A stretch of DNA of 52,357 bases from positions 1 through 52,357 of the forward strand of contig JBAXYM010000004.1 of the NCBI GenBank assembly GCA_041670805.1. The letters are read 5' to 3'. The position numbers and the translations under genes are program-made. This DNA is from Patescibacteria group bacterium. GTDB lineage: Bacteria > Patescibacteriota > Minisyncoccia > JAHIHE01 > JAGLIN01. A model generated the notes under the pieces. The model ran no database searches, was not told where the DNA came from, and was given only the letters and a program-made list of their open reading frames with translations. Positions 3,781 through 22,792 of the stretch are shown here, piece by piece; position 1 is the stretch's first letter, and every line of letters starts with the position of its first letter.

Positions 3781-6732
3781 TTAAAACTTTTTAATAATAA
3801 TATCAACCAAACGATTCAGATATTTATTAAAATCATTAACTTCAAGCCTCCCCTTATATTCCTTCAAAACCAAAGATTGGACTATCTTTTTTATATCCTT
3901 AAGAAACTGATCTCTTTTAGTAGATTCTTGCCAACCCTTGTCCAAAACGCCTTCCAATTCTTTCGACAAGTCTTTTATAAAATCTTTCATCACGTCATCC
4001 TTGAAATTACTCACGAACTCTTCAGAAATAACATATAGACCGTACTCTTTCAGATTCATTCCAAGCTCTTTTGCTTCTTCCTGTTTATCCTTAATATCAT
4101 TCAGAAGTTCATAATATCTCTTTATCCTGGTTTGCAAATCAATCTGGTTTTGCTCGAATTCTTTTCTAATAGCAGACAGTCTCTCGCTGAATTTTTTATA
4201 AGCCGGATGAGAATCCATATTGATGGAAATTTCCTGCTTGAGCATTTTCTCCAAATTCAAAGCCTTCTCTTCGTCATCCATCTTGTCTAGTCTCTCAAAA
4301 GTATATAGCTCATTGACTTTCAGCTCTCTGAAATTCTTAGTAATTCCTTCATAATCAATTTTCTTCTGAATGAGTTCTTTCACTTTTTCGCCATATTCCG
4401 CCAGTTCATGACTGTCCTGTTCGTTCATTTTAAATTCCTTGGCAAAAGCCAGATAAAAACCGGTGATCCATTCGAATTTTCCCAGGTATTCTTCCAGAAA
4501 AGGATCCGGCGATAAAATTTCAAACAGTAGTTTCAGCTTGTTGTATTTGTCGGAGAAAAATTGCTGCTTGTCTTTATTCTCAATAAATATTTTAAAGCAT
4601 CGGCGCAAATTTTCAATGGATGGATCTTCTATATTAATGCCGACAAACAAATCCATAATCTCATCCAGAGTTTCAATAAACTTTTCTTTAATAGCATCAA
4701 TATTTATCAAAGCGCTATCAATCACGCTCTCGTCAAAATCCAAAGCCTTCTGCAAATTTCTGGTAATTCCATAATAATCAATGATCTTTCCGCAGCCTTT
4801 ATTCGGATATACCCTATTTGTTCTTGCGATAGCTTGAAGCAAATTATGATCACGAAGCGGCTTATCCAGATACATCGCTTGCTCGATTGGAGCGTCAAAA
4901 CCGGTAAGAAGCATATCGCAAACCAGCAAAAATCTAAGCGGACTTTCCTTGTCCTTAAAACGATTGATTATCGTCTCTCTTTCTTTTTTATTTGTATTAT
5001 ATTTTTCCAGACTGTCGCTTTCAGAGTTAGGATCCCCGGGAGAATAAACCACCTCGCTCCATTCAGACGGAACAAGTTTATCCAGCAGTTCTTTATACTT
5101 TGCCGTTGCTTCCCGATCATAGCAAACAATTTGCGCCTTAAAACCATTAGGTTCGACATAAAGCTTATAATGTTCAACAATATCTTTTGCAACAGCTTCC
5201 ATTCTCTTTTCAAGCTTCACGACAGCTTCTTTTTTGCCGTATTTTTTTGACAAATATTCTTTCTGATCTTCCGACAAATCTTTTGTAAGCTCATTAAATT
5301 GTTTTTCAACCTGTTCTTCGTCTATAAAAAATTTGGAAAGTCTGGCTTCATAAGTAACCGGCAAAGTCGCCTCGTCATCCACTGCCTGTTTGATGGAATA
5401 ATAATCCAAATATCTCTCCCCTTCCTCGCCGAAGTTTCGGTGCGTATTCAAAGTCAATTTATCAATCGGCGTTCCGGTAAAGCCGAAGAAAAAAGCATTT
5501 TTCATAGAGCTGCGCAATTTAATCGCCGAAATCCCTTCGTTATCGCGATGAGCTTCATCGGAAAGCACAATCACATTACTATTCAACATTTTCGCATCGC
5601 TTCCTAACTCTGAAAATTTCTGAATGGTCGAAATAAAGATTCCGCGCTCGGAAGATTTGATCTTTTTCTCCAAATCTTTCCTCGAAGTTACACGAATAAC
5701 ATTCTTTCCTCCGCAATTTATAAAAGTATCAAAAATCTGAGTGTCCAGGTCCACACGATCAACCAAAACAAAAACCTTGGGATTTTCCAACTTTTTTGAA
5801 AAACGAAGTTTCCAGGCTGCGAAAAACATAGTCAGGCTTTTTCCGCTCCCTTGGGTATGCCATATCAATCCTTTTTTACTTTCTCCTTTTTCTACCCTCT
5901 CAACGATTTTGTTGGCCGCGCGATATTGCTGATAGCGACAAATTTTCTTGATTCTCTGTTCTTTTTCCTGCTCAAATAAAATGAAATTGGAAATAATATC
6001 CAAAAGTCTGTTTTTTTCAAGCAAACAAAACAAAGTAAGCTCCAACTCTTCCTTGTATTTTTTCTGCAAATCTTCATCTTTCCAACGCAAAAAATATTGT
6101 TTCGGCGTATAAGTTGCTCCGTAAACCGTGTTCAAGCCATCGGAAGCAATATTGAAACAATTCGGCAAAAACATCTTGCGGGCATTTTTCTCATATCGTT
6201 TCAACTGCCCGATTGCCTTTTCAAAATCAACGCTCGTCGAAGCGGTCGGACTCTTGGCTTCAATGTCCACAATCGGAAGGCCATTCAAAAAAATCATAAT
6301 ATCAGGTCGGATGTTTTCCAGTTCACCTTCAAAATATAACTGATTCGTAACGACAAATCTATTGTTCTCTATCTTATCATAATCAACAACAAGATAATCC
6401 CGCTTCTTGCCGGTTTTCAGATCTTTGATATTGACTCCGTTACGATATAAATTTAAAAACCCCTCATTGGTATCAATTTTCCTGACTTCACGAACGACTG
6501 TCAGCGCCTCTTCTTCACTGATATTATTTATCTTTTTCACAGCTTCAAGCAAAAGCGGAACTATAACATATTCGCTCTCAAATTCCCTCGACTTTGAAAA
6601 TTCTTCCGAAGAAATATATTCATAGCCCAAACCACCTTTGTTATCTTGATCACTTTTCTTCTCAGAAAGGTTTGCTCCTGAAAGAAATTTTATAATGTGA
6701 TTTTCTACTGTATATTGTTCGTTAAACTTCAT
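3781..6732 (-). CDS. hsdR: type I restriction endonuclease subunit R
   Basis: 983 aa. N-terminal nuclease region (PDIMIFLNGLPIVDIEAKS), helicase motifs WHTQGSGKSLTM (Walker A) and VLSDEAHR (DEAH), long helical C-terminus. Confidence 0.95.
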   Translation of the reverse strand: MKFNEQYTVENHIIKFLSGANLSEKKSDQDNKGGLGYEYISSEEFSKSREFESEYVIVPLLLEAVKKINNISEEEALTVVREVRKIDTNEGFLNLYRNGVNIKDLKTGKKRDYLVVDYDKIENNRFVVTNQLYFEGELENIRPDIMIFLNGLPIVDIEAKSPTASTSVDFEKAIGQLKRYEKNARKMFLPNCFNIASDGLNTVYGATYTPKQYFLRWKDEDLQKKYKEELELTLFCLLEKNRLLDIISNFILFEQEKEQRIKKICRYQQYRAANKIVERVEKGESKKGLIWHTQGSGKSLTMFFAAWKLRFSKKLENPKVFVLVDRVDLDTQIFDTFINCGGKNVIRVTSRKDLEKKIKSSERGIFISTIQKFSELGSDAKMLNSNVIVLSDEAHRDNEGISAIKLRSSMKNAFFFGFTGTPIDKLTLNTHRNFGEEGERYLDYYSIKQAVDDEATLPVTYEARLSKFFIDEEQVEKQFNELTKDLSEDQKEYLSKKYGKKEAVVKLEKRMEAVAKDIVEHYKLYVEPNGFKAQIVCYDREATAKYKELLDKLVPSEWSEVVYSPGDPNSESDSLEKYNTNKKERETIINRFKDKESPLRFLLVCDMLLTGFDAPIEQAMYLDKPLRDHNLLQAIARTNRVYPNKGCGKIIDYYGITRNLQKALDFDESVIDSALINIDAIKEKFIETLDEIMDLFVGINIEDPSIENLRRCFKIFIENKDKQQFFSDKYNKLKLLFEILSPDPFLEEYLGKFEWITGFYLAFAKEFKMNEQDSHELAEYGEKVKELIQKKIDYEGITKNFRELKVNELYTFERLDKMDDEEKALNLEKMLKQEISINMDSHPAYKKFSERLSAIRKEFEQNQIDLQTRIKRYYELLNDIKDKQEEAKELGMNLKEYGLYVISEEFVSNFKDDVMKDFIKDLSKELEGVLDKGWQESTKRDQFLKDIKKIVQSLVLKEYKGRLEVNDFNKYLNRLVDIIIKKF

Positions 6733-6737
6733 AGGGT

Positions 6738-7586
6738 TTATTTCGCTAATTTATCTTTATCCAAATCTTTTAGGCTTTTCTTTTCGTCAGACTTTAATTT
6801 TCTTTCTATTTTTTTAATGTCTTCTTCGGCTGGTAATTTTTCAGGATATATTCCTCTGGAAATGAGAGTTTTTCTGACACTCCTATTATTAGTAACATGC
6901 TCTTCGGAAATACTTAGCTCCGTATTTAGTCCCTTCTCTTTTGCATTAAAAATTGTAATTTCAGATGCAAAATCTTTTGCTTTCAAGATAATGGTCGGCT
7001 GAAAATCGGATAATGGCCTGGATTGCGGAATGCCCAATTTATCTTTCATCTCCTGCGTAGTATATCCAAATAAGGCCTTGTCTCCTTTGCTTCTAATCAA
7101 AGCAAAATTTTTATCGCTACCGGTTTGTTGAAAGATAACTCCAGACAATTGCTTTTCCGTCTCCGTTAATTTATGCCTGGCCTGCAATCTCTCAAACTCC
7201 TGAATCTTCTTCTCTATTATCTCAAATTTTCTAGTTTGTACAGCAAAATATGTCTGCGCGAAAGCTATTTCTTCTTTGGAAGAATCGCCGTTTTGAGCAA
7301 TCAAATAACATGCATATCTTGTCAGCATCATATCAGACACCGTTTTTTCCGCATTTTTAGGCATTTTTATCGTTTTCCCGATGTCGGCAAAATGATCGGA
7401 AACTTGTCCACCGGACAATTCACAAGCCGTTTTTGCCTTAGAAATAACATTCAGAAAATTATCCCATTTGGCATAACCGAGTAAATATTGCAAATCGCGA
7501 GCAAGCCAGAATTCAATGCCATCTTCTGTTTTATTGACATACGATTCAAAATTCTTCGTAAGCGATTTTATGATTTCTTGTTCCAT
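6738..7586 (-). CDS. dinD: DNA-damage-inducible protein D (DinD/BRO-N-like)
   Basis: N-terminus GIEFWLARDLQYLLGYAKWDNFLNVISKAKTACELSG..VSDHF..MLTRYACYLIAQNGD..IAFAQTYFAVQTRK matches the DinD pattern as I recall it. Sits between the protease gene and hsdR. Confidence 0.8.
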   Translation of the reverse strand: MEQEIIKSLTKNFESYVNKTEDGIEFWLARDLQYLLGYAKWDNFLNVISKAKTACELSGGQVSDHFADIGKTIKMPKNAEKTVSDMMLTRYACYLIAQNGDSSKEEIAFAQTYFAVQTRKFEIIEKKIQEFERLQARHKLTETEKQLSGVIFQQTGSDKNFALIRSKGDKALFGYTTQEMKDKLGIPQSRPLSDFQPTIILKAKDFASEITIFNAKEKGLNTELSISEEHVTNNRSVRKTLISRGIYPEKLPAEEDIKKIERKLKSDEKKSLKDLDKDKLAK

Positions 7587-7618
7587 TGATTTAAAGCTTA
7601 CTTAGTTAATTATTTCTA

Positions 7619-11141: not shown

Positions 11142-12920
11142 TTAGTATTTTAATTCCTTTAAAAACTTTTTCACTTTCTCGCCAATCTTCTCCCTCTCCT
11201 TCTCAAGCTCCGCAATCTCTGCTTTGACCGCTTTGACATCAATCTTTTCCTCTTCCTCACTATTATCCACATACCTGCGAATATTGAGATTAAAATCGTT
11301 CTCCCCTATTTCTTTCAAATCAACAACTCTGGCATATTTCTCTATATTTTTATAACCGTCATAAGCCTCTACGATTTTATCAATGTCCTGCTTTCTTAAA
11401 GAATTCTGATTCTTGCCTTCCAGATAATCATTTTCCGCATTAATGAAAAGTATTCTATTCTTCCTATTCTCTGGTTTGTTGTTATTAAAAATCAGAATCG
11501 AAACGGGAATCCCCGTGCCAAAAAACAGTTTGGCAGGAAGCCCAATCACGGCATCAATCAAATCGTTTTTTATAATTTGTTCTCGAAGCCTTCCTTCCGC
11601 CCCGCCACGAAACAAAACTCCATGCGGAAGAATCACGCCCGCTCGACCATTAGCATTCATTGATTTGAGGATGTGTAAAACGAAAGCGAAATCAGCGTTT
11701 TTCGTCGGTGGCAATTCATATCCATCAAGTCGCCCGTATTTATTATTTCTAAAAATTTCATACTCCCAATCTTTGATTGAATAGGGGGGATTTGCTACCA
11801 GAATATCAAATCTTTGCAAGTTTCCGTCATTATTCAGGAATTGCGGATTTGCAAGCGTGTCTCCACGAACAATCTCGGCACTGTCGAGCCCATGCAGGAA
11901 CATATTTATCTTAGCGATCGCATATGTCCCGATATTTATTTCCTGTCCGTAAAGGTATAAAGTTTTTGCGATCTTCTCACCCGATTTATTTTTCAAATAA
12001 TTATAAGCCTCAAGAAGAAATCCCCCGCTTCCCACGGTCGGGTCGCAAATGTGATCTTTCTCGTGAGGTTTTAAAATATTAATAATCACTCTCTCAACTT
12101 CACGGGGAGAATAAAATTCCCCGCCTTTTTTGCCGGCATCCGCTGCGAACTGCTTGATCAGATATTCATAAGCGTCGCCCAGCAGATCAGAACTGATATA
12201 TGTGTTACCAAAGTTATATTCAGAAAAATGATTTATAAGGCGCTGCAATGTTTCGTTTGGAAACCTGTCTTTGTTTGCAAAATCAAGATCATCAAATATC
12301 TTGTCCAACTTGGGACTGTTAGCATTTGCAAGTTTATCAAAAATATCATTCAGCTTACTGCCAATCCCGTCAGCCTGTTTGGTGATAACTTCCCACCGAC
12401 AATCCTTAGGAACCTGAAAGCGATGGTTATAATCCGCCGTTGCCAGTTCTTCGTTATGATATTCTTCCATAATCTGATTATATTCTTCATCCCAGATGTC
12501 GCTGATTCTTTTATAAAACAAGAGTCCAAAAATATATTTCTTATAATCCGAGCTGTCAATTTTCCCCCTGAGAATATCAGCGCTCTTCCAAAGAAACTGC
12601 TTGAGAACGGCCAGTGTCATTTTTTCCTCGCTTATCTCAACCATAAGCGATCCCATATCCTGGTCAATAATTTTTTCGATATCCGCAGGCCTGTATTTTC
12701 TGTCCTTCCTCGCACCTACCCGAAGAGGGGTAATCATGCCTCTTTTCTCCCAGTTCCTTAGGGTATCCACATGGACATTAAAAAGCTCTGCGGCCTCGCC
12801 TATTGATAACAATTTCACATTTTTATCTTCAGTTTTTTTGTTCCCAGTTTTCATGGCTTGTATAATTAAGCAGCTATCTGTATAAATTATATTATCAAGC
12901 ATAAATTTGTCAAATTTCAT
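11142..12920 (-). CDS. hsdM: type I R-M methyltransferase subunit M with an N-terminal MerR/excisionase-type HTH extension
   Basis: Canonical HsdM starts at MTLAVLKQFLWKSADILRG (M at 12620). It has FYSPREV, VGSGGFLL (SAM binding) and NPPYS motifs. The preceding 100 in-frame aa contain LLSIGEAAELFNVHVDTLRNWEKRGMI (HTH). Confidence 0.9.
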   Translation of the reverse strand: MKFDKFMLDNIIYTDSCLIIQAMKTGNKKTEDKNVKLLSIGEAAELFNVHVDTLRNWEKRGMITPLRVGARKDRKYRPADIEKIIDQDMGSLMVEISEEKMTLAVLKQFLWKSADILRGKIDSSDYKKYIFGLLFYKRISDIWDEEYNQIMEEYHNEELATADYNHRFQVPKDCRWEVITKQADGIGSKLNDIFDKLANANSPKLDKIFDDLDFANKDRFPNETLQRLINHFSEYNFGNTYISSDLLGDAYEYLIKQFAADAGKKGGEFYSPREVERVIINILKPHEKDHICDPTVGSGGFLLEAYNYLKNKSGEKIAKTLYLYGQEINIGTYAIAKINMFLHGLDSAEIVRGDTLANPQFLNNDGNLQRFDILVANPPYSIKDWEYEIFRNNKYGRLDGYELPPTKNADFAFVLHILKSMNANGRAGVILPHGVLFRGGAEGRLREQIIKNDLIDAVIGLPAKLFFGTGIPVSILIFNNNKPENRKNRILFINAENDYLEGKNQNSLRKQDIDKIVEAYDGYKNIEKYARVVDLKEIGENDFNLNIRRYVDNSEEEEKIDVKAVKAEIAELEKEREKIGEKVKKFLKELKY

Positions 12921-13072
12921 ACTTTTTCATAGGTTATCTATGTCATAAACATTTACAACAAGCAAGTTTCAAAAATATACCAAATATCCCTATAGTTATG
13001 GTAAGAAATATGAAAAGTGCCGCGGGAAGCTAGGTTCTTAAAAATAAGCAGTGGAAGAAAGGAGGTGATCCA

Positions 13073-13200
13073 TCCACAGCCTTCTGCTCCACTGTAGTTC
13101 GAGACCCATTCCACATCAAAAAAATACCGAGCTTTCACTCGGCATTTTTTGCTTGTTTTAGCCACGCATACGGGTCGCTTTCACAAAAATTAACTGCTCG
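13073..13200. repeat. module-boundary repeat unit, copy A (long form)
   Basis: CACAG..CTGTAG hairpin, AGTTCGAGACCC, A-run, hairpin TACCGAG..CTCGGCA, T-run, then the core CTTGTTTTAGCCACGCATACGGGTCGCTTTCACAAAAATTAACTGCTCG (13152-13200). Confidence 0.8.
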
Positions 13201-13513
13201 CCTGGCGGAACAGCTTTCGAACTTTTGACTGGGAAAAGGCACTGCCGGTGCCGGAAATGGTGATAAAAGATGTTGGGAAGTTATTAACTCTAACTTAATA
13301 TTCTTGCTATCCCCACCCCTTTGGAATTTCCAGATCGGGGCGCTTATTGTGAATCATTCTTATAAACTTTTTATGTCTTCTATTTTATTGTTACATTGAG
13401 ATTATCTTTGCACGCTCTTAAGACACACTATCCGAAAAATTATACCCGAAGAGATAAAAACATGAAAAGAGCCTGACAAGTGTTAAACTAGCCAGGCTTT
13501 TAGATACTTATAG

Positions 13514-13540
13514 TTAAAACTGATCTTCGCATTGCGAAGA
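13514..13540 (-). terminator. intrinsic terminator downstream of the radical-SAM operon
   Basis: On the minus strand, TCTTCGC-AAT-GCGAAGA hairpin (13524-13540) followed by TCAGTTTT. Lies 45 nt after the stop at 13585. Confidence 0.45.
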
Positions 13541-13584
13541 GAATCCGTTCGACCTCCGAAAGAGATCAATGGTCTCATTTTTAA

Positions 13585-14551
13585 TCACTTGATGCAATCA
13601 GTATCTGATCCATTTAATTTATTTTTCTGATAATAAGCTCTTGCCCTGCACCCTCCACAATATGATAGATATTCACACCCACCGCATGGTTCGTCAAATG
13701 AAGAACGATCTCTTAGAATGTTGAATATCTCCGATTCAAACCATAATTGCTTTAGGTCGGTTTCATAGATATTACCCGCTTTGAGTCTGAGAAACGGACA
13801 AGGAACAACATCTCCATTCGGCAGAACTACGCATGCAGCAACACCAGCAGTGCATCCACCCTTGATACCAAGATACTTTTCCGTTTTTTGCTCTTTCAAG
13901 ATCGCTGCAAACGGAGAAGTGAATCGCAGAGTTTTTTTATTTAGATACAGCCGATGTAGCTTTTTCATAACCTCAACCTTTTGGCTGGAGGTTAATTGAA
14001 GATCTTCCTTATCACCGGGAATGCACAGATTGAAGCCGATGTCTATACCATTATGATTCGCTATATCTACCATCCAGTCAATCTTATCGATATTACCGGG
14101 ATTGGACTGTCGCGAAAAAATAAGTATAGATTCCGGCATCAATAAATCGTTTAGCAGTATTCACCATATCTTTTACGAAAGTTTTCCGTATAGCAGAATC
14201 ATCAATCTCAAAACTGAGATGAACAATATCAAAAGCTTTGACAATCTCGATATCCATTTTACCTATCAAACCATTTGATTGAACAACCATTTTGAGATTC
14301 GGCTTGTTTGACTTTATGTAGTCAGCCAAATCTTCGAATTTTTCATGCAACGCCGCTTCGCCGCCTGAAACGATGAACTTTTGGACACCATTCGCCTCCG
14401 CAAACCTAATCAGATTGATCACGTCGTCCAGAGGCATATCGTGGTTCTTGTTGGTTCGATTGTAGCAATGGCGGCAATCCAGGTTGCATTTGGTGGTTAT
14501 CTCAACTTCCAATAAATGCAGACCCAATTTCGCATCGTCGATCTCTGACAT
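13585..14551 (-). pseudogene. radical SAM/SPASM enzyme no. 3, split into two frames
   Basis: ORF 14093..14572 holds the rSAM core (TTKCNLDCRHCYN, SGGEAALH). ORF 13585..14142 holds the SPASM part (GGCTAGVAACVVLPNGDVVPCPF, CGGCEYLSYCGGCRARAY). The 50-nt overlap contains an A6/T6 run at 14115-14120; removing one base joins ..GIYTYF to SRQSNPGNI. Confidence 0.7.
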
Positions 14552-15569
14552 TTTCGAATCCTCCCTCTTCATAAGTTGATGCCCATGCTCTACAGCCAGA
14601 ATAGCATCTCGGTTTTTTCAGACACTTGTTGCATTCTCCGGGAACTTTGTCGCCAAGTATAAGCTGGCGAAAAAGATTAAAACCCTTGCCCGTCTTCCAG
14701 ATACAGTATTCATTGCCGGTTAAAATATTTCCGCAATAAAATTCTTCACTCTTGAAGAAATTACACGGAAAAACTCTACCGTCGCTTTCTACTACCAGTT
14801 TGTACTTCCCTGCTGCACAATTGGGCAGCAACAGACCTGAATTTCTATAATGTTCTTTATTGTTAATGAAGATACTATGAAAGCCATGTTTCAATGTCAG
14901 TTTGTTTTTGGGAATTTTTTTCAGATTATCCATATAATCTATCAACAATCCCCTATCCAAAACTAACGCGACATCTTCGAAAGCATTTCCGAATCGTGAA
15001 AACACTGGAATAGACGGTGCGAATTTATGAATACTGAACCTTGAATCGAAATACTCGAACACTTCCATCATCTGATGATAGTTCGACTTGACCAGTGACA
15101 TGTTTATCGAAACCCTTACCCCCTCTGCTACAGCTCGTCTTATATTGTTTTCGATCAAATCAAATGACTTAGCTTTTCCAACAATTTCGTCGTGAACACT
15201 TCCGATACCATGAACTGAAAAAACCACTTCATCGACGCTTGCCAATACACTCGAAACATCCAATGTTCCGTTTGTGTTGATTCTTATTTCGAAATTCAAT
15301 CTCTTGCACCAGTTTACCAATGTTGCAAAATCAGGATATAAAAAGCTTTCACGCCCCGTAAAATCCAACCGTCTAATTCCAAGATTACGGAGCTTGAGAA
15401 TTATACACTGCCACTGCACCAGCGTAAGATCGGGTTTTGTTTCCACGATCTTTTTACCGGTATAACAGAATTTGCACCTTTGATTACATTTGGCTGTAAG
15501 CTCAAGCTGGGCCAAAATCGGTTTTTCCCATGCCATCTCAAGCAGCTCCTCACGACTAAACCCATTCAT
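14502..15569 (-). CDS. radical SAM/SPASM enzyme no. 2
   Basis: LELTAKCNQRCKFCY (CxxxCxxC). C-terminal Cys clusters LPNCAAGKYKLVVESDGRVFPC and CNKCLKKPRCYSGCRA. 4-nt overlap with the upstream PqqD-like gene. Confidence 0.85.
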   Translation of the reverse strand: MNGFSREELLEMAWEKPILAQLELTAKCNQRCKFCYTGKKIVETKPDLTLVQWQCIILKLRNLGIRRLDFTGRESFLYPDFATLVNWCKRLNFEIRINTNGTLDVSSVLASVDEVVFSVHGIGSVHDEIVGKAKSFDLIENNIRRAVAEGVRVSINMSLVKSNYHQMMEVFEYFDSRFSIHKFAPSIPVFSRFGNAFEDVALVLDRGLLIDYMDNLKKIPKNKLTLKHGFHSIFINNKEHYRNSGLLLPNCAAGKYKLVVESDGRVFPCNFFKSEEFYCGNILTGNEYCIWKTGKGFNLFRQLILGDKVPGECNKCLKKPRCYSGCRAWASTYEEGGFENVRDRRCEIGSAFIGS

Positions 15570-15823
15570 GACTGTTCCTCCAGTATCTTCTTTGAGATGA
15601 GATAATTCAGAAACGATTCAGGCAACTCCCTAAGACTGCGCTTCTCGTTGATGATTACAAACATCTGATTGATAAGTTTTGCAGCAGCCCCCGTAAAAAA
15701 TGTGTAACCAAAGTCGTAGTAAAAAACATAGACTCCGCTTTTTTCTCGGTAGGCGACAGCAGGATTGAGCAGCAATAGCTTTTTCATCGCTTCCTCCCTA
15801 AAAAAATTGAGAGGTTCCATCAT
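15566..15823 (-). CDS. PqqD-like peptide chaperone (RiPP recognition element), tentative
   Basis: 85 aa. The pattern LNPAVAYREKSGVYVFYYDFGYTFFTGAAAKLINQM..SLRELPESFLNYLISKKIL resembles PqqD/MftB-type proteins. Lies between the small ORF and an rSAM/SPASM gene. Confidence 0.55.
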   Translation of the reverse strand: MMEPLNFFREEAMKKLLLLNPAVAYREKSGVYVFYYDFGYTFFTGAAAKLINQMFVIINEKRSLRELPESFLNYLISKKILEEQS

Positions 15824-15851
15824 GGTTATAACGGAACCTCAATCTGAGACA

Positions 15852-15953
15852 TTAATCGGCGTTAATAAGACAGCCATTGGCATTAAACTCTTCGACGTCC
15901 ATCTGCCAGTTTGCAACTTCGACGTTAGATTCTTCCTGCGCGATTGGTTCCAT
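15852..15953 (-). CDS. candidate RiPP precursor peptide, 33 aa (not in ORF track)
   Basis: My translation: MEPIAQEESNVEVANWQMDVEEFNANGCLINAD*. SD AAGAGGTG lies 5 nt upstream of the ATG (15951-15953). It fills the only intergenic gap of the operon, directly upstream of the PqqD-like gene. Confidence 0.45.
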   Translation of the reverse strand: MEPIAQEESNVEVANWQMDVEEFNANGCLINAD

Positions 15954-15972
15954 TGTTACACCTCTTTTTTGT

Positions 15973-16737
15973 TTAGTTTTTCTGAGCAACAAAGTAGAGT
16001 CTGCTCAGGTGCTTTTCGTTATCTTCGTAAACTTTGTATTCTTCTCTGACTTCCAGCAAATTGAAGCCAGCTTGCTCAAGCAACGGAGCAATATCCTCCT
16101 TGTCGTATCCTCTCTCAATGTGCCTTTCCTTTATTAGATGATAACACTCCCTCTCTCTGACGAAGAAATCGATGTCCAGCGTCCAGAACCTGCCCTCGCC
16201 ACCGAAACGGAATACCGAATAGAATTCGGCTTCTTCGAATACCCGCGGCTTGAATTTTTGAGCAGTTTGAACGTGATCCATAGGATTCATATCGAAAAGA
16301 AAGATCGTGCCTACCGGAATGTTGCGGTTTACTGCTTTAAATGTTTGCAACATGTCCTCATCGGAAAGCAGATAATTCAAGGAGTCATAGAAGGAAACCG
16401 CCAGTGTGACTGGTTTGACCTGGTCTCCCAAATCAAAGTTCCTCGCATCCACACAGACGAACTGCTCATCAGGAAATTTTTGCTTAGCAACCGAGATCAT
16501 CTCATCCGAGATATCGATTCCGATCACTTTGAATCCCAGCTCAATCAAGAGCTTGGAAATATTTCCAGTTCCGCAAGCCACATCCAGGCAAACACCCTTA
16601 GGAATGTTATATTTTTCAACAACTTCGGCAATAAGGTTTTTCCAACCAAGATATTTGCTTTCCCCCATCAACCTATCGTAGAATCTTGCCATCACACGAT
16701 AGCCTTCTGAATTGTCATATTGTTTTTCTTTGTCCAT
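15973..16737 (-). CDS. class I SAM-dependent methyltransferase
   Basis: CLDVACGTGNIS (motif I), GIDISDEM, VSFYDSLNYL. 254 aa. Confidence 0.85.
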   Translation of the reverse strand: MDKEKQYDNSEGYRVMARFYDRLMGESKYLGWKNLIAEVVEKYNIPKGVCLDVACGTGNISKLLIELGFKVIGIDISDEMISVAKQKFPDEQFVCVDARNFDLGDQVKPVTLAVSFYDSLNYLLSDEDMLQTFKAVNRNIPVGTIFLFDMNPMDHVQTAQKFKPRVFEEAEFYSVFRFGGEGRFWTLDIDFFVRERECYHLIKERHIERGYDKEDIAPLLEQAGFNLLEVREEYKVYEDNEKHLSRLYFVAQKN

Positions 16738-16739
16738 AA

Positions 16740-17993
16740 TTATTCTCCAATAATTGTTTTCTTATAACGGTTTGAGAACCTACAAAAACCTCCGCAAACG
16801 ATTTCTTTGTCGTTTTTAGTGCATCTGCGACAATCTTCATTTTGTATCAGCAATCTTTTGGTTTCATCTTCCAAATCACTCACCAACATTGTTAGCGAAT
16901 AATCTTCGATATTACGCAAAAAACGTGACCGATCCATAACACAGGGATATAGCACCCCACGACTGTCAACAGAAATCCTCTTTCTTAGTCCGCATCCGTA
17001 ATAGTGTGAATCAGGAACAGTTTTTTTGGTATTTAACAGTCCGTTTCGCACATTCGGATGTTTCAATAATATTCCCAATTCTCTCGCAAGATCCACTCGC
17101 TCAAGATTGTTGAGAATTGCCGCACCGGTTTGGATAGTGGGTCGAAAATGGACTGTCGTATTGAATCTCTTTGCGACATCGACCATTTCCTTGGCACTGC
17201 TAAGATTTTCTTTATTCAAGGTTGAAATAAAATAAATGCTAACCCCCTTGGAATAAAGCTTCTCCAGCCCTGCCATCATCTTACCATACAACCCGGCACG
17301 ACGTCTAACCCGATCGTGAATCTCGCCGATCCCGTCCAGACTTACTGCCAATCCTAAGCCTTCTTTTAAAATATCAACCAGTTCATCCGACGAATCAATT
17401 AGAAATTCGCCGTTGGTCACAACATAAAAATGCAACCCATGCTGTTTGATAAAAGTTAGAATTTGACATAAATCCTTACGAGAAAACGGCTCACCCCCTG
17501 TTACCTCAAACAACCCCACCCCCAGATCCTTCAGCTTTAAAATCCTGGCAAGCAGGTCTTCAAGTGGAGGAACATAGTGATCAAGATCCGATTTGTGATA
17601 ACAAGTTATGCAATCACAATTGCAGAAAGAAGTTACTTCGAACAATACCTGAGTCGGCAAGCCGCTGACATCAACATACATTTCTCTGTATGCCTGAGTT
17701 AAAGCTGGATTTGCCAGAATAACCTCGTTCTCAAGCAAAACTGACAACACATGATTCGATATACCTTTTCCTGAAAATGTCCTGCTTCTCAGCAGATCCG
17801 CCATTTCTTCATCCACAAACAAAAAGGAGGAATACAGCATTGGCGGAGTAATAACAGCTCCGTTCGGCTCATAACGAATAATTGCCGAAGGATTAAGATG
17901 ATAAAAATCATCTCTTTGGCAAACAGTGTCGTCAGATTCTCTGATTCGTACAATACAGGGAACCGCCAGATGATGCAGATTGGTAACAAACAT
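16740..17993 (-). CDS. radical SAM/SPASM enzyme no. 1 with an N-terminal extension of about 100 aa
   Basis: FEVTSFCNCDCITCYH (CxxxCxxC), VTGGEPF. SPASM-type clusters YYGCGLRKRISVDSRGVLYPC and CRRCTKNDKEIVCGGFCRF. Confidence 0.85.
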   Translation of the reverse strand: MFVTNLHHLAVPCIVRIRESDDTVCQRDDFYHLNPSAIIRYEPNGAVITPPMLYSSFLFVDEEMADLLRSRTFSGKGISNHVLSVLLENEVILANPALTQAYREMYVDVSGLPTQVLFEVTSFCNCDCITCYHKSDLDHYVPPLEDLLARILKLKDLGVGLFEVTGGEPFSRKDLCQILTFIKQHGLHFYVVTNGEFLIDSSDELVDILKEGLGLAVSLDGIGEIHDRVRRRAGLYGKMMAGLEKLYSKGVSIYFISTLNKENLSSAKEMVDVAKRFNTTVHFRPTIQTGAAILNNLERVDLARELGILLKHPNVRNGLLNTKKTVPDSHYYGCGLRKRISVDSRGVLYPCVMDRSRFLRNIEDYSLTMLVSDLEDETKRLLIQNEDCRRCTKNDKEIVCGGFCRFSNRYKKTIIGE

Positions 17994-18004
17994 GGATAAC
18001 CTCC

Positions 18005-18994
18005 TTATAAACTTTTTATTTCAAGAATTTCCACCAGCTCCTTGTAGGACTGTTCGTTTGAAATATCTACATTAGTAATCATTTTCAAAGCTTCAGCATA
18101 ATCAATCACACCAAAGCGCACCCTTTCTGCCAGATAGTCTAAAATGATCGGATATTTTGCGATCACAAATTCCATCTCCTGATTGGGTTGAAAATTTAAT
18201 CCCTCCGCAAAAAATACACCGGGGACAAGACAATCGGTATCAAATCCGCCACATCCAGAGTAAACCCATGGAATCTTATGATCCCTAATGTAATCAGAAT
18301 TAGCCGATTTTGAAAGACCGAAAGCATATGCGCCACGTACAATGATAATACCGCTTGGCTTGGTCCAAAAAAGAGAATATGCTCCTTTTGAATTTTTTTT
18401 GGGAGTATCCCCTCCCGTAACCAATGTAGTAAATCCCAAATCTTTCATCACAGAAGCGTATGTCCCGTCTATCATAGTATTGCATATCTCGCCACAGGGC
18501 AGTATGCCTTTTTCTCTACAGATCCTGTAAACATTAAGCGTCGTGGCCGGATTTCCGGTTATTTTCAGGATTTTTTGATCATCCTGAATTTTATCGGCAA
18601 CATCTATATAGCGATGGTCCTCCCTAAGATTGAGAAAGTTTAAAACATTCTCGATATTTTTTTCCGCAATCCTGCCCTTCACTCCCGTATTTACAGTAAA
18701 AAGCTGCAGTTCAATAGACTTTTTCTGGCATTCCCGAGCAAGCTTCGCTAAAACAGCCGTGCTGTCCAAACCTCCCGAGTATGCGAAAAGAATTTTTTTG
18801 TTCTCTCGCAAAAACAACTCAAACTCTTCATTGAATTGCTTTCTGGAAGGCAAGTTGCCAGAATTTAGGACATCAAAGCAGATATCACAGACGACTCCCT
18901 CGCCACTTTCGTGGAATTTCAGTTCTTCTCCGGTTCTAGGATTAATAACGTTCAAACCTACCGGATTAATGCAATATTTGCAATGCTTTTCCAT
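18005..18994 (-). CDS. PP-loop (N-type ATP pyrophosphatase) family protein with N-terminal zinc ribbon
   Basis: FAYSGGLDSTAV (SGGxDS PP-loop). N-terminal CKYC..CDIC. SD AAGGAG 8 nt upstream. First gene of the operon. Confidence 0.7.
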   Translation of the reverse strand: MEKHCKYCINPVGLNVINPRTGEELKFHESGEGVVCDICFDVLNSGNLPSRKQFNEEFELFLRENKKILFAYSGGLDSTAVLAKLARECQKKSIELQLFTVNTGVKGRIAEKNIENVLNFLNLREDHRYIDVADKIQDDQKILKITGNPATTLNVYRICREKGILPCGEICNTMIDGTYASVMKDLGFTTLVTGGDTPKKNSKGAYSLFWTKPSGIIIVRGAYAFGLSKSANSDYIRDHKIPWVYSGCGGFDTDCLVPGVFFAEGLNFQPNQEMEFVIAKYPIILDYLAERVRFGVIDYAEALKMITNVDISNEQSYKELVEILEIKSL

Positions 18995-19056
18995 TATCTT
19001 GTCTCCTTTTCGTTGTCAATGTACTTTCCAAGCTAAGCCTTCTAGCTTTACACTAA

Positions 19057-19084
19057 ACTTTATACCAAATTCCTGAATTGTCAA
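19057..19084 (-). promoter_or_regulatory. candidate promoter of the rSAM operon
   Basis: Minus strand TTGACA (19079-19084), 16 nt, TAAAGT (19057-19062), about 60 nt upstream of the ATG at 18994. Confidence 0.35.
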
Positions 19085-19235
19085 CTATTCTAGCCTACAT
19101 TCTAATCCCAATCTTAATCTCCCAAAAGAACATCTCAGTAGATGGGCGACGAGCTATCTGTACTCTAAAGAGTGGGAATGAAACAGAATAAGAAACAGAA
19201 GACAAGTGTCAGGCGCCAGATAGCTTTGCTAGTAG

Positions 19236-19320
19236 CATTGCAGTTCGAACCCGTTAGGGGTATAAAAAATTACCGCTTGTTAAAGCGGTAATTTGCCAGT
19301 TCCCCAAGCAGGTCTAGAAC
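19236..19320. repeat. module-boundary repeat unit, short form
   Basis: GCAGTTCGAACCCGTTAGGGGTATAAAAAA, hairpin TACCGCTTGTTAAAGCGGTA, then ATTTGCCAG..TCTAGAAC. Lacks the GCGAC..GTCGC core. Resembles 39271-39351. Confidence 0.55.
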
Positions 19321-19458
19321 CAAATAGCTTCAATCCCATAAAGCCTTTTTAGGCTATCTTTCCAGAAATCCAAGATGGGAACGGGTCGGGGTCTAAAAAG
19401 CAAAATGAGACAAATGAGACAAATATAAAAGAAAGCGCTATGTACCATTTTCAAATGA

Positions 19459-19487
19459 TTGACATTTTTCAATATTTGTTTTACAAT
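19459..19487 (+). promoter_or_regulatory. near-consensus sigma70-type promoter of the nucleotide operon
   Basis: TTGACA (19459-19464), 17 nt, TACAAT (19482-19487). About 55 nt upstream of the ATG at 19544, which has the SD AAGGAG. Confidence 0.55.
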
Positions 19488-19543
19488 AAGCCAGTCCTTT
19501 AAAAAGTAGTAGCCGAAAGTTAAAGTTATTAAGGAGAAATTAA

Positions 19544-19891
19544 ATGAGCAACGATTCTCAAAAAATCTATAAAATCAAAAAAGATAGATACCTTAGAGCT
19601 AGAGGAGGTACATCAAAAATCCTAAGAATAGATTGCAGTCAATGCGGAGCCAATATAGCTTTCTATCAGAAAGACGGACCTGGTTCCCTATTGAGGATGT
19701 ATCTGGATAGGATACATGATTGCGAGAGCACCAAAAGTTTGGGCAATGTCTCGGCAGAATCTCAGCTACCAAATATAAACTGTCCGACTTGCGGAGCTCT
19801 TATAGCAACTCCGATGATTTATGAACCAGAACAAAGGCTTGCATTCAGAGTCATAAAAGGTTCAATCAGAAAAACAATAATGAAAAAATAA
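19544..19891 (+). CDS. small zinc-ribbon protein, unknown function
   Basis: 115 aa with CSQC...CPTC. Strong SD. First gene of a four-gene plus-strand operon. Confidence 0.6.
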   Translation: MSNDSQKIYKIKKDRYLRARGGTSKILRIDCSQCGANIAFYQKDGPGSLLRMYLDRIHDCESTKSLGNVSAESQLPNINCPTCGALIATPMIYEPEQRLAFRVIKGSIRKTIMKK

Positions 19892-19905
19892 AACAAGGTA
19901 ATAGA

Positions 19906-20727
19906 ATGAAACCCCACTCCCCCACAGATATGACACCAGAATCAATAGCACGAGAAAATGGATTGGATTTGGAAGATCTAAATAATCTTCTTGATAAAAT
20001 CCATAGAAGTATGCAAATTCCTGCACAAAGAGTGTTCGTCCAAGAAAACGACCTAGGCCGTTACTTCATGGTAGAGCTCAAAGGGGCAGGAAAAATAACG
20101 ACTCCATACGGAAAATTTTGGGAGTATGACTTCCGAATTGACGATGAATGGAGGAAATATTCTGTAATTTTCAAAGGAGAAATTGATGAAGAAACTTTCC
20201 TTCCAATTTTCAAGAACAATAAAGAATTAGTACTAAGAACAGATTCTGGCTGTGAAACCGGACAAGTATTTAAAGATATAACCTGCGAATGCGGCGATCA
20301 ATTGGATTTGGCATTGAAGACTATCGCCGAAGTGGGCGAAGGAATGATAATCCATATTCCAAGGCAAGATGGTCGAGGCATGGGATTACCGTTCAAGCTT
20401 GCTACGTTATGGCTACAAGATGAGTTTAAGATAAACACAGTGGAAGCTGCTTGCCTGTTGGCTCCTGGTGGAGTTATCGATGTAAGAACATACACCGGAG
20501 TAATATGCATTCTTAAATTCTTCCAAGTTTCTACCGAATGCCATATAAAGTTAGCAACCAACAATCCCAAGAAGGCCGAAATATTCCAAGAAAACGGTTA
20601 TATTATACCGGACTATGTGCCAGTTATAATAGAGCCGAATGAAAACACTAGGCGCCACTTGACTGCCAAACAGGATTGCCTTGGACATATTGGACTTGTT
20701 CATCCTGATATAGAGGAGCAAGAATGA
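19906..20727 (+). CDS. GTP cyclohydrolase II-like protein with an N-terminal extension of about 110 aa
   Basis: LRTDSGCETGQVFKDITCECGDQL (Zn-Cys motif), RQDGRGMGL, ..DVRTY.., KLATNNPKK. These parallel RibA motifs (SECLTGD..CDCG, QEGRGIGL, LLTNNP). Confidence 0.7.
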   Translation: MKPHSPTDMTPESIARENGLDLEDLNNLLDKIHRSMQIPAQRVFVQENDLGRYFMVELKGAGKITTPYGKFWEYDFRIDDEWRKYSVIFKGEIDEETFLPIFKNNKELVLRTDSGCETGQVFKDITCECGDQLDLALKTIAEVGEGMIIHIPRQDGRGMGLPFKLATLWLQDEFKINTVEAACLLAPGGVIDVRTYTGVICILKFFQVSTECHIKLATNNPKKAEIFQENGYIIPDYVPVIIEPNENTRRHLTAKQDCLGHIGLVHPDIEEQE

Positions 20728-21578
20728 ATGCCATAGAAATGCTAAGAAACCGAGCAAGACAGAAAAATACTTTTGCATGTTGCGGCTTAGATCCTGATAA
20801 GACTAAGCTGCCACAAGCAATTCTAGAAATGGATTGTTCGGACAGGGAAAGAATATATATATTTCTTAGAACAGTAATCGAAATTACAGCGCCTCACGTA
20901 TGTGCATACAAGATACAAAAGGCCTGTTTTGACCTACTGCCTTCTGGATACAGCCTCCTCAAGGAGATTATTGCATATATCCACGAAAAGCACCCGGAAA
21001 TTCCCGTCATTATTGATTGTAAGATTGGAGATATAGGCAACACTATGGAAGCTTTTTATGCCCTTAGTATCTTCGAACGGTTGCAAGCTGACGGGGTGGT
21101 AGTTAATCCCTATATGGGCGATGAAGTGTTCACTTCTCTGGAAGGTTATCCTGATAAAATTGTCGTGGTATTAGTAAAAACAAGCAATAAAGGAAGCGCG
21201 GCAGTGCAAGACATTGTAACTCAATCAGGGGAAAAAGTCTGGGAGGTAATTCTGGGCCTTGCAATGAACAGATGGAATAGACATGGGAATATAGTTCCCG
21301 TCATATCATCCACTGCCGGAGTTGATTTAGTAAAAGTCAGAAGAGCAATTCCCAACGAAACTCCCATCCTCTTTGCAGGTGTCGGAGCCCAAGGCGGAAG
21401 CTATGATGGATTCGCACATCTGTTTACAGACGAAGAATCTTGCGTTTTTGCTAATTCCTCGAGAAAAATATTGTATTCTCCTGCAGAAAAAGGTAAAAGC
21501 TGGCAAGATTTAGTCGAGGAACGGATAATAGAACTTAAAAACGAACTAAACGCCAGCAGGAGGTTGAAAAGCATTTGA
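20724..21578 (+). CDS. pyrF: orotidine-5'-phosphate decarboxylase family (type 2)
   Basis: CCGLDPD, VIIDCKIGDIGNT, GVGAQGG. 4-nt overlap with the upstream gene. Confidence 0.75.
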   Translation: MNAIEMLRNRARQKNTFACCGLDPDKTKLPQAILEMDCSDRERIYIFLRTVIEITAPHVCAYKIQKACFDLLPSGYSLLKEIIAYIHEKHPEIPVIIDCKIGDIGNTMEAFYALSIFERLQADGVVVNPYMGDEVFTSLEGYPDKIVVVLVKTSNKGSAAVQDIVTQSGEKVWEVILGLAMNRWNRHGNIVPVISSTAGVDLVKVRRAIPNETPILFAGVGAQGGSYDGFAHLFTDEESCVFANSSRKILYSPAEKGKSWQDLVEERIIELKNELNASRRLKSI

Positions 21579-22135
21579 CTAAATTTCTACTTCTGCTTGG
21601 ACCTTCGGGCGTAGGCAAGAGTACCATAATAAAAGAATTGCGGCAGATGGACAAACGTTTCATATACATATCGCCTTACATCACTCGCCCTCTTCGAGAA
21701 AACGAGACTGATAAGGTGCATATAAGCGACCAGGAAATGGACTTAAGAGAAGCGAACGGCGAATTCCTTATTATTAACAATTTATATGGAATAAGGTATG
21801 CCACGCCCATTGAGCCCATCACAAAAGCACTGGAAGATAACCTTTTTCCAGTGCTGGACTGGCCAATTAGCCGGATGGAAATAATGACCAATTCTTTCTC
21901 CGGCCAATTGTATACCGTATACGTTTGTCCGCCTTCTTGGGAAGAGCTGCAAGAAAGAATGGCAAGGGATCAGAGGAATAAAAACACGGACAGACTAAAA
22001 GCTGCCCGCAAGGAATTTAATGAATTTCAGACTGGAGGCTACGAAGGATTATTTGATTTTCAGATAATATCTTACAATTTTAGAATTTCTGAAATTGCCA
22101 AGAGTATATATCTGAATTATCTACAAAATATTTAA
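21575..22135 (+). CDS. gmk: guanylate kinase-like P-loop NMP kinase
   Basis: LLGPSGVGKSTII, SPYITRPLRENE (compare S-TTR-PR-GE), YGIRYATP, VYVCPPSWEELQERM. TTG start overlapping the pyrF stop (TTGA). Confidence 0.65.
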   Translation: MTKFLLLLGPSGVGKSTIIKELRQMDKRFIYISPYITRPLRENETDKVHISDQEMDLREANGEFLIINNLYGIRYATPIEPITKALEDNLFPVLDWPISRMEIMTNSFSGQLYTVYVCPPSWEELQERMARDQRNKNTDRLKAARKEFNEFQTGGYEGLFDFQIISYNFRISEIAKSIYLNYLQNI

Positions 22136-22137
22136 AG

Positions 22138-22168
22138 GGGGCTTAGGTTTCAAACTTAAGTCCTTTTA
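22138..22168. terminator. bidirectional terminator between convergent genes
   Basis: CTTAGGT-TTCAA-ACTTAAG hairpin (22142-22160), flanked by AAAGGGG on one side and TCCTTTT on the other. Confidence 0.4.
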
Positions 22169-22792
22169 TATTTGCCCAATCAAATTTTCCACCTTTTCTT
22201 TGTCCGTATAATTGAAATGTAAAGAATCCGTGAACTGCACATATTTGCCGGTTTCGATACCCAAACGCTTCGCCATATATTTTTGCAGAGATGCAAATTC
22301 ACCTAAGTTCATAAGGAATTTGCCATAACAGTCAGAAGTTCGCATGTGGACATGCATATCCAGCTTATTATCGGTTATTTCTGTCCATATGATCTGCAAA
22401 CAGGGACCTATCTCTCCATACATGTCTTCTTCCTGCTTCCATATGCTTGCCTGAGCCCTCTTACCTGTAGGTTTCTTTGTTAAGTATTCGATGATATTTT
22501 CTATTTGGCTATAATTTTCAGAAAATAACCTGTGCCGGTATATCTTCGTCCATTCATGAATAACTTTATCCTCGTTTTCTCCCGTCACCAGGTAATCATT
22601 GATAATCTCCATATCTTTTCTGGATATGGGAAATTTATCATCATAAAAATCTTCATTGACATTTTCTATCTCCACAACCGCAAGGTCATATCTATAGAAT
22701 TCCTTTTCTTGAGACCCTGATCCATGTAGATAAAGTTCCTTAAAGCTCTTTTGCCAGCACTCGGCTACGGTTCTTGCTTTTATATGCAGCAT
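22166..22792 (-). CDS. short thymidylate synthase (ThyA)-family enzyme; could be a pyrimidine hydroxymethylase
   Basis: 208 aa. GPCLQ (catalytic Cys context), RTSDCYGKFLMNLGEF (R-S-x-D motif), TDSLHFNY (D-x-H-x-Y). Confidence 0.7.
   Translation of the reverse strand: MLHIKARTVAECWQKSFKELYLHGSGSQEKEFYRYDLAVVEIENVNEDFYDDKFPISRKDMEIINDYLVTGENEDKVIHEWTKIYRHRLFSENYSQIENIIEYLTKKPTGKRAQASIWKQEEDMYGEIGPCLQIIWTEITDNKLDMHVHMRTSDCYGKFLMNLGEFASLQKYMAKRLGIETGKYVQFTDSLHFNYTDKEKVENLIGQI

Follow-up and report, generated by a model that had tools for sequence, protein, structure and literature searches.

Contig JBAXYM010000004.1 of a Patescibacteria group bacterium (assembly GCA_041670805.1), analyzed here as a window of 52,357 nt, carries at positions 13585-18994 a minus-strand run of co-directional open reading frames (ORFs) whose neighbors abut or overlap. 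The run encodes a PP-loop ATPase, three radical S-adenosylmethionine enzymes (rSAM1, rSAM2, and rSAM3), an S-adenosylmethionine (SAM)-dependent methyltransferase, a 33-residue peptide, and a 73-residue protein, which together we call the cassette. An initial annotation, made from the DNA letters, had described this run as an operon resembling those for peptides synthesized on ribosomes and modified after translation (RiPPs). Its gene order, its coordinates, and the abutting or overlapping arrangement on the minus strand were confirmed by ORF and Pfam analysis (Table 1). Seven intact genes had been proposed; their order and content stand, but rSAM3 is represented in the window by two ORFs. Source annotations name the cassette proteins merely "hypothetical protein" or "radical SAM protein." The window sequence is identical to part of ENA contig ERZ27249489:k141_939646 (154.8 kb).

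Table 1. Genes and predicted regulatory features of the cassette, in window coordinates and in order of transcription
Feature	Coordinates	Strand	Properties
Promoter-like site TTGACA-16-TAAAGT	19057-19084	-	consensus scan, 10/12 matches
PP-loop ATPase	18005-18994	-	329 aa; SGGLDS; N-terminal CxxC...CxxC
rSAM1	16740-17993	-	417 aa; PF04055 66 bits
Class-I SAM methyltransferase	15973-16737	-	254 aa; Methyltransf_25/11/31 above cut-off
Precursor peptide ORF	15852-15953	-	33 aa, MEPIAQEESNVEVANWQMDVEEFNANGCLINAD; Shine-Dalgarno-like sequence 5' of start
Hairpin after precursor stop codon	15811-15840	-	13-bp stem-loop and T-run; terminator-like by scan
Small protein with predicted RiPP recognition element fold	15566-15787	-	73 aa; start backed by homologues and a Shine-Dalgarno sequence
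rSAM/SPASM2	14502-15569	-	355 aa; PF04055 and PF13186 above cut-off
rSAM/SPASM3, split	14093-14572 (159 aa) and 13585-14142 (185 aa)	-	two overlapping ORFs

The PP-loop protein, used as a query, had 55 relatives; every one with an informative name was patescibacterial (Moranbacteria, Falkowbacteria, or an unclassified member). A further 21 loci came from a scan of species-representative genomes and 40 from one of metagenomes. Several loci are archaeal, being labelled Woesearchaeota, "Methanosarcinales," or unclassified. The archaeal contigs are genuine, as they encode MCM, an archaeal-type leucyl-tRNA synthetase, an AglJ-like glycosyltransferase, and a geranylgeranyl reductase. No relatives of the cassette were found in viral contigs. 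Components were counted in the 19 of 45 non-redundant loci with at least 5 kb on each side of the PP-loop gene. All 19 had a homologue of rSAM2, one of rSAM3, and a small ORF with W-x11-C-x2-N-x-[DN] close to its stop codon; the 73-residue protein was present in 13, rSAM1 in 12, and a separate methyltransferase in 11. Because the peptide, rSAM2, and rSAM3 stand beside the PP-loop gene at every one of these loci, we conclude from gene content that these four genes form the ancestral conserved core. On the same basis rSAM1, the methyltransferase, and the 73-residue protein are lineage-specific additions, mainly of Patescibacteria. The full set is hosted by Patescibacteria, and the core set by DPANN or other archaea; among the loci recovered, the family was confined to these hosts.

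The precursor has a variable N-terminal part and a conserved stretch of 18 C-terminal residues (in the window, WQMDVEEFNANGCLINAD, ending in GCLINAD). When 33 unique C-terminal cores were compared, Trp-18, Cys-6, and Asn-3 (numbered back from the C terminus) were invariant. Position -1 was Asp in 26 and Asn in 7, Gly-7 was present in 29, and positions -16, -14, -5, and -4 were hydrophobic. The resulting pattern, W-x-[ML]-x-[VIA]-x-x-phi-x-x-x-G-C-[LMA]-[ILV]-N-x-[DN], ends at the stop codon or close to it. Both length and charge differ among the N-terminal parts, which are acidic in Moranbacteria and lysine-rich in other lineages. Synonymous codons vary at the conserved core residues (four Gly, both Cys, both Asn, and six Leu codons are used), which indicates that selection acts on the amino-acid sequence; this codon usage marks the core as being under purifying selection. 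The precursor gene is present in two tandem copies at locus L062 and in a single copy at most loci. In the first 18 loci, Phe-11 and Asn-8 seemed to go with rSAM1 and the methyltransferase, but six further loci (L028, L044, L048, L054, L059, and L062) break this correlation, and it was rejected. The hairpin that follows the precursor stop codon has counterparts at the same position in five loci (L004, L006, L011, L012, and L014), all strong and unlike the window's in sequence; the structure is thus kept across loci and the sequence is not. We predict that it serves as an attenuator, terminator, or transcript-stabilizing element, and hairpins of a similar kind are present behind the precursor genes of other RiPP operons.

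Patescibacteria loci keep the order and content of the cassette in unrelated genomic surroundings. In one of them (L006) it lies between ribosomal-protein operons, and in a Moranbacteria locus (L004) it adjoins another rSAM pair. DNA homology of about 80% (80.5%) to the latter locus spans window positions 13588-19084 and goes no further. The homologous block runs from the rSAM3 stop codon to the promoter-like TTGACA-16-TAAAGT, ending exactly at the ends of the operon. This site, a promoter by prediction, forms the upstream edge of the cassette. Among the genes around the cassette no peptidase, transporter, immunity, or oxidoreductase family recurs in more than 3 of 20 loci. Since no family of neighboring genes is shared across loci, the cassette is not accompanied by a peptidase, transporter, or immunity gene.

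Pfam places a Radical_SAM domain in all three rSAM enzymes and a SPASM domain in two of them, rSAM2 and rSAM3 (its second half); all three proteins contain CxxxCxxC together with SPASM-type sets of cysteines. For rSAM2 the SPASM score with PF13186 was 28 bits against a cut-off of 21.5; its conserved cysteines are C28/32/35 and the full SPASM set of seven (C251, C269, C313, C316, C322, C326, and C346). rSAM3 scored 39.3 bits against 21.5 with PF13186 and 52.7 against 27 with TIGR04085, and its seven SPASM cysteines are conserved; in nearly all loci the first 50 nt or so of its gene overlap the end of the rSAM2 gene. The initial annotation of three rSAM/SPASM enzymes therefore holds for rSAM2 and rSAM3 by hidden Markov model (HMM), but rSAM1 shows a SPASM-like pattern of six cysteines only. 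Besides its CNCDCITC motif, this enzyme conserves C334, C351, C388, C391, C400, and C404 in its C-terminal part, spaced C-x16-C ... C-x2-C-x8-C-x3-C. It also has an N-terminal extension of about 110 aa, and its N-terminal ~100 residues align weakly to the family of the 73-residue protein (hhalign P = 0.0024), which suggests that rSAM1 carries its own N-terminal domain resembling a RiPP recognition element (RRE), as sactisynthases do. rSAM1 and the methyltransferase are fused in two loci, in L008 as one protein of 666 aa and likewise in L015; the fusion in L008 indicates that the two steps are linked.

When the cassette proteins were compared with curated NCBIfam models, none reached a cut-off, the intact rSAM3 allele and the archaeal homologues included. 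The best curated model for rSAM2 was MftC (TIGR03962; 86.7 bits, cut-off 265), with which intact rSAM3 scored 77.8 and an archaeal rSAM2 143 bits. Intact rSAM3 matched NirJ2 (124 bits) and AhbD (108 bits) best, the cut-off being 500 for each, and rSAM1 matched NirJ1 (75 bits, cut-off 650) and StsB (67 bits, cut-off 625). Across the family, scores with SPASM models of non-RiPP function stayed at or below 164-165 bits for NirJ2 and 154 for AhbD (cut-off 500 each) and at or below 86 for anSME (cut-off 349). The methyltransferase reached no NCBIfam equivalog, CpaM (44 bits) and the daptide methyltransferase (42.5 bits) being closest. Among solved structures, the nearest to the rSAM enzymes include the peptide-modifying SkfB, PqqE, and SuiB, and anSME also appears. 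SkfB and PqqE, in that order, are nearest to rSAM2; BlsE, a cytosylglucuronate decarboxylase, is nearest to rSAM1; and SkfB is among the nearest three for both rSAM1 and rSAM3. The initial annotation had named as contrary evidence rSAM enzymes falling into known non-RiPP families and a small ORF missing from homologous clusters. Neither was found: every cut-off was missed, and the ORF is present at 19/19 loci.

For the 73-residue protein a mechanical list of ORFs gives 85 aa, and homologues back the shorter start. The protein had been called PqqD-like, an assignment that holds at the level of predicted fold but not in Pfam or PDB profile searches. The Pfam scan gave no match for it or for the 33-residue peptide; PqqD (PF05402) matched none of 11 family members even at E ≤ 10; and a profile search of the PDB with the protein family returned nothing relevant. 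The AlphaFold2 model, built on a shallow alignment of five sequences, had a pLDDT of 91.9. When this model was submitted to Foldseek, 10 of the 11 best matches were RRE domains or RRE-containing RiPP enzymes: TbiB1 in its leader-bound form (5v1v, TM-score 0.65), the RRE of PbtF (8t19, 0.67), LynD, TruD, McbB, and ThcOx were among them. The model has the winged-helix architecture of an RRE, with three beta-strands followed by helices, and superposes on solved RREs. By prediction from its modeled structure, we therefore assign the protein to the RREs of the PqqD fold, albeit without support from sequence. Across loci it co-varies with the bacterial type of rSAM2 and not with rSAM1.

The PP-loop protein reached no family HMM cut-off (PF01171, 24.2 bits against 27). 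It nevertheless belongs to the PP-loop superfamily by motif and Rossmann-like fold, the SGGxDS motif (here SGGLDS) being invariant in homologues. Its AlphaFold2 model (pLDDT 94.6) matched TtuA, LarE, NadE, TilS, and an amidotransferase in Foldseek with probability 1.0. The best TM-score, 0.53, was to the N-acetyl sugar amidotransferase 8wex, which has a similar N-terminal ribbon. The [4Fe-4S] sulfurtransferase TtuA, NcsA, the [4Fe-4S] enzyme LarE, and NAD synthetase were also similar, at TM-scores of 0.38-0.53 and identities of 12-17%. Five cysteines (C159, C167, C171, C248, and C255) are invariant in 28 homologues and may form a binding site for a metal or an Fe-S cluster. Among 1.84 billion representative proteins, a profile search yielded only 24 clusters at E ≤ 1e-30. 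More distant relatives occur in other contexts, one adjoining a TatD nuclease and another LuxE and LuxC. The pattern CGGYDTDC was chosen for finding this family and implies no specificity against other PP-loop families. We conclude that the family is small and tightly tied to the cassette, and that the window protein is the founding member of a family with no characterized member. A literature search returned no description of the cluster, the peptide motif, or a PP-loop enzyme in an rSAM RiPP pathway, most subscription journals lying outside its coverage. Taken over the resources searched, the cassette family is described by no curated model, source annotation, or paper.

In the window, rSAM3 is disrupted by an insertion of 1 nt at 14102-14103, where the coding strand has an extra A (CCAATCC in place of CCATCC). 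The ORF at 14093-14572 accordingly holds the CxxxCxxC half and matches Radical_SAM, and that at 13585-14142 holds the SPASM half and matches SPASM. Five assemblies contain an exactly identical rSAM2; one is the window's own contig and four are independent. Of the latter, L032, L034, and L035, which are 99.6-99.9% identical to the window, do not have the extra base and read GTCCATCCCGG, and in L032 and L035 rSAM3 is called as an intact gene of 321 aa. The window and L033 both carry the base (GTCCAATCCCGG) and hence the same frameshift. The extra A is probably a real allele, since it does not fall in a long homopolymer and was seen in two samples. An alternative placement of the frameshift at a run of six T was ruled out by the near-identical assemblies, the true difference being the extra A slightly downstream. 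The reverse situation was observed in L032, where rSAM3 is intact and rSAM1 (515-1830) is split into three ORFs (162, 211, and 96 aa). Strains of one population thus differ in which cassette gene is lesioned (rSAM3 in the window and L033, rSAM1 in L032), and the cassette seems to be accumulating lesions in the window's population. Because rSAM3 is frameshifted, the copy in the window is probably non-functional or impaired.

The surroundings of the cassette bear out the defense/mobile island proposed for it initially. They include a TOTE primase-helicase, type I restriction-modification, NYN and trypsin-like proteins, an AAA_13 ATPase, a 1507-aa helicase, a Rep protein, two serine recombinases, an S24 repressor, a ParB-methylase, and tRNA-Gln, the last being the sole match in an Rfam scan. 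The operon had also been placed between two module-boundary repeats. Repeats do exist on either side, but they belong to different families, are unpaired, and both lie outside the block of homology: the one at 13106-13210 is a member of a four-copy family of about 105 nt, and 19259-19295 is a separate 37-nt hairpin with a second copy at 39284. A matched pair, direct or inverted, flanking the operon was sought within 12800-19700 and rejected, as just short matches at chance level were seen and the longer repeats were those of the two families. The element of about 105 nt is intergenic, its other copies lying at 35842-35947, 38602-38705, and 38752-38857. It starts like the 3' end of a tRNA (AGTTCGAGaCCC...CA), continues with a GC-rich hairpin and a T-run, and then has a conserved TTGTTTTAGCGACGCAT..GGTCGCTTTCACAAGAATTGACTGCTC block; it had no match in Rfam. 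These elements could be leftover attachment sites of serial integrations or a small RNA.

Several other features of the window and of related loci were recorded. Direct repeats at 2606-2739 and 45061-45195, 83-87% identical and 42.4 kb apart, bracket the whole defense island, the cassette included. The pair lies near a serine recombinase (42749-44239) and tRNA-Gln (44209-44280) and may represent the attachment sites of the island. A second direct-repeat pair, at 45367-45584 and 52040-52256, is 91% identical over about 215 nt. Between 438 and 2606 lies the gene of a 722-aa protein in which an archaeo-eukaryotic primase domain of the TOTE conflict system (222 bits) is fused at the N terminus to a ResIII/DEAD helicase. 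A block of large genes at 28852-38432 comprises an AAA_13/SMC-like ATPase (779 aa), the 1507-aa AAA_11/AAA_12 helicase, which has a C-terminal topoisomerase-type Zn ribbon, and proteins of 151 and 653 aa without a Pfam match. Copies of the 105-nt repeat flank this block, which may be an uncharacterized defense system. Divergent from the cassette, 19544-22792 encodes a Zn-ribbon protein of 115 aa, a homologue of GTP cyclohydrolase II, a protein of the OMP-decarboxylase family, and a guanylate kinase, with thymidylate synthase next in line on the opposite strand. This nucleotide-metabolism set, unusual inside a mobile island, could serve nucleotide modification or depletion, and the group is not conserved with the cassette elsewhere. 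In the Moranbacteria locus L004, a 50-aa ORF and then NTP_transf_2 and RNHCP proteins come after the second, different rSAM/SPASM pair beside the cassette (5088-7603; 436 and 344 aa); this may be another peptide-modification cluster. In locus L009 (14471-15870), a Cys-rich ORF of 38 aa, MEILIEAEQKCFFNNDCYNDYCSADFGDYCGCDSDNNS, stands directly upstream of a radical SAM gene of 425 aa, about 2.4 kb downstream of the rSAM3 of a divergent cassette copy, and is probably part of a separate RiPP locus.

A short precursor, co-located and conserved with its enzymes at 19/19 loci and constrained in its core, is what identifies a RiPP cluster. We therefore interpret the cassette as a self-contained, horizontally mobile biosynthetic unit of the RiPP type in which the peptide is the substrate of the enzymes, and assign this reading a probability of roughly 0.78. 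The 19/19 loci, the constrained core, and the predicted RRE fold likewise support the RiPP-like operon of the initial annotation, with its center of peptide, RRE, and rSAM/SPASM enzyme. The logic of RRE and rSAM/SPASM enzyme is established in the pyrroloquinoline quinone (PQQ), mycofactocin, and sactipeptide pathways, and adenylation is established chemistry for PP-loop enzymes. Because it follows this known RiPP grammar, the cassette is not categorically new.

Maturation could proceed as follows. The 33-residue peptide would be the substrate, with its variable N-terminal part and fixed C-terminal segment. The 73-residue RRE protein would bind it and present it to rSAM/SPASM2, much as PqqD does for PqqE and MftB for MftC, and rSAM1 would carry its own N-terminal RRE-like domain. 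Hydrogen abstraction by the SPASM enzymes would then lead to cross-links or oxidative changes near Cys-6, Asn-3, and the C-terminal Asp/Asn, and possibly at Trp-18. From the chemistry of its superfamily, the PP-loop enzyme would, at the expense of ATP, adenylate a peptide carboxylate or carbonyl group and replace it with nitrogen or sulfur, giving an amide, an amidine, a nitrile, a thio-derivative, or a ring closure. The methyltransferase would add a tailoring methyl group.

Several observations tell against this interpretation. The cassette has no conserved leader peptidase, exporter, or immunity gene next to it, and no RRE was detectable in the archaeal core version. The assignment of the RRE derives from a model on a five-sequence alignment, with three of five models of low confidence and two confident, and from Foldseek matches at E of about 0.04. 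rSAM1 matches neither SPASM HMM (PF13186 or TIGR04085). The RiPP product and its chemistry are predicted here from the genes, and the cassette may be decaying in its population, given the frameshift in the window and the rSAM1 of L032 in three pieces.

The most radical alternative is that the substrate is not a peptide: the PP-loop and rSAM enzymes would modify a nucleotide, tRNA, or DNA, in the manner of QueC and QueE or as an anti-phage system, with the small ORF serving as a regulatory leader peptide. The PP-loop fold does resemble the tRNA thiolase TtuA, PHROGs gave a weak QueC-like match (E 1e-4), a distant PP-loop relative sits beside a TatD nuclease in an arrangement like that of Qat defense, the window neighbors include genes of nucleotide metabolism and defense, and a terminator-like hairpin follows the small ORF. 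Those neighbors, however, are not conserved with the cassette. In PADLOC the PP-loop protein, peptide, and RRE had no match, and the pVip matches cover only the generic rSAM core; apart from the QueC-like match, PHROGs returned only generic rSAM and methyltransferase families, and viral copies were not found. Since the cassette also includes an RRE-fold protein, its rSAM enzymes are of the SPASM peptide-maturase type, and the peptide residues are kept at fixed spacing across domains far beyond the need of a leader peptide, we consider this explanation very improbable.

If the peptide is the substrate, its product could be a redox cofactor or small metabolite like PQQ or mycofactocin, made from an excised G-C-L-I-N-x-D and used intracellularly by ultra-small symbionts, or else a secreted bioactive peptide (a bacteriocin, a signal, or a host-interaction factor), carried as island cargo and processed and exported by generic peptidases and transporters. 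The core speaks for the cofactor: it is extremely conserved in bacteria and archaea, as is typical of PqqA and MftA and not of antimicrobial cores, which usually diversify; it lies at the C terminus; and most loci have a single precursor copy. The MftC/PqqE-like center, with MftC as the best curated match of rSAM2 and a discrete RRE partner, agrees with this, as does the lack of a conserved exporter or immunity gene, which at the same time weighs against a secreted peptide. Yet the family is rare and patchy, with only those 24 clusters in the representative set, no client oxidoreductase or peptidase is conserved nearby, and neither the MftC and PqqE cut-offs nor the MftA and PqqA motifs are matched. 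Residence in a mobile island and a frameshift in some strains of one population fit an accessory trait, and we regard a cofactor as distinctly unlikely. The rarity of the family is also in keeping with a secreted peptide, as are the movement of the cassette between unrelated contexts (here into a defense/mobile island), the strain-level loss-of-function alleles typical of accessory competition genes, and the second rSAM/SPASM pair with its 50-aa ORF beside the L004 cassette. Against it stand the near-invariant core across domains and the missing dedicated transporter, peptidase, and immunity gene, and on balance this proposal is somewhat unlikely.

Within the interpretation of the cassette as a mobile RiPP-type unit, we put forward tentatively, and with the odds still against it, that it represents a new RiPP class or peptide-derived cofactor that crosses the domain boundary among ultra-small, probably symbiotic prokaryotes. 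Such a class would be defined by activation of the peptide by a metal- or Fe-S-binding PP-loop family, together with two SPASM enzymes acting on the Cys/Asn/Asp motif. The PP-loop step may, for example, be C-terminal or backbone amidation, nitrile formation, thio-modification, or ring closure; to our knowledge, PP-loop enzymology of this kind has no characterized precedent in RiPP biosynthesis. Few biosynthetic clusters are recognized in the tiny genomes of Patescibacteria and DPANN archaea, and the investment of six to seven genes in one peptide, common to both domains, points to importance for their lifestyle as a cofactor, signal, or weapon. Two families without a characterized member are defined by the analysis, that of the precursor (W-x11-C-x2-N-x-[DN]) and that of the PP-loop enzyme. 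The copy in the window is cargo of a mobile defense island and bears a frameshift, probably inactivating. Intact alleles are available in public assemblies and offer natural-product enzymologists a compact system.

Among known systems mycofactocin offers several parallels. It shares a precursor of about 30 aa, a conserved C-terminal core with Gly-Cys, a discrete small RRE protein directly upstream of the rSAM/SPASM gene, and the maturase MftC, the best curated match of rSAM2. In contrast, rSAM2 scores 86.7 bits where MftC requires 265, the cassette peptide does not end in Gly-Val-Tyr, and the cassette adds two rSAM enzymes, a PP-loop enzyme, and a different methyltransferase. MftD, MftE, and MftF were not recognized among the Pfam-annotated neighbors of the cassette loci, and the hosts differ, mycofactocin being found in Actinobacteria and the cassette in Patescibacteria and DPANN archaea. 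PQQ biosynthesis has the same logic of peptide, RRE, and rSAM/SPASM enzyme, and PqqE is among the nearest solved structures. The PqqE model (TIGR02109), however, gave 68 bits against 381, the peptide has no Glu-X3-Tyr motif, the cassette has no PqqB or PqqC, and the Pfam model of PqqD misses the 73-residue protein.

Sactipeptide and ranthipeptide maturases (AlbA, SkfB, StsB, and PapB) are likewise rSAM/SPASM enzymes acting on a Cys-containing peptide, and AlbA and its relatives have an N-terminal RRE-like domain, as in rSAM1. Their models were missed widely (StsB, 67 bits against 625; SkfB, 59 against 300; PapB, 116 against 340), the core has a single Cys (31/33 unique cores) where several are usual, and in the cassette a PP-loop enzyme is obligatorily associated. 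Hence the initial view that the cassette fits neither class is upheld. The uncharacterized GeoRSP and SynChlorMet (ScmE/ScmF) cassettes described by Haft also have paired rSAM/SPASM genes beside a small peptide, in some cases together with a PqqD-family protein, and sequence similarity to them is moderate. The GeoRSP_rSAM model reached up to 165 bits for an archaeal rSAM2, below its cut-off of 400; those cassettes have another precursor family and, unlike ours, no PP-loop enzyme. The nitrogen- and sulfur-transferring PP-loop enzymes (TtuA/NcsA, LarE, 8wex, NAD synthetase, and the lasso cyclase) have in common with the cassette enzyme the SGGxDS motif and the alpha/beta fold, and TtuA and the amidotransferase also its N-terminal Zn ribbon, but identities of 12-17% and TM-scores of 0.38-0.53 set it apart. 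The lasso-peptide cyclase, which resembles asparagine synthetase, is a RiPP precedent in which an enzyme of the PP-loop-type superfamily activates a peptide carboxylate.

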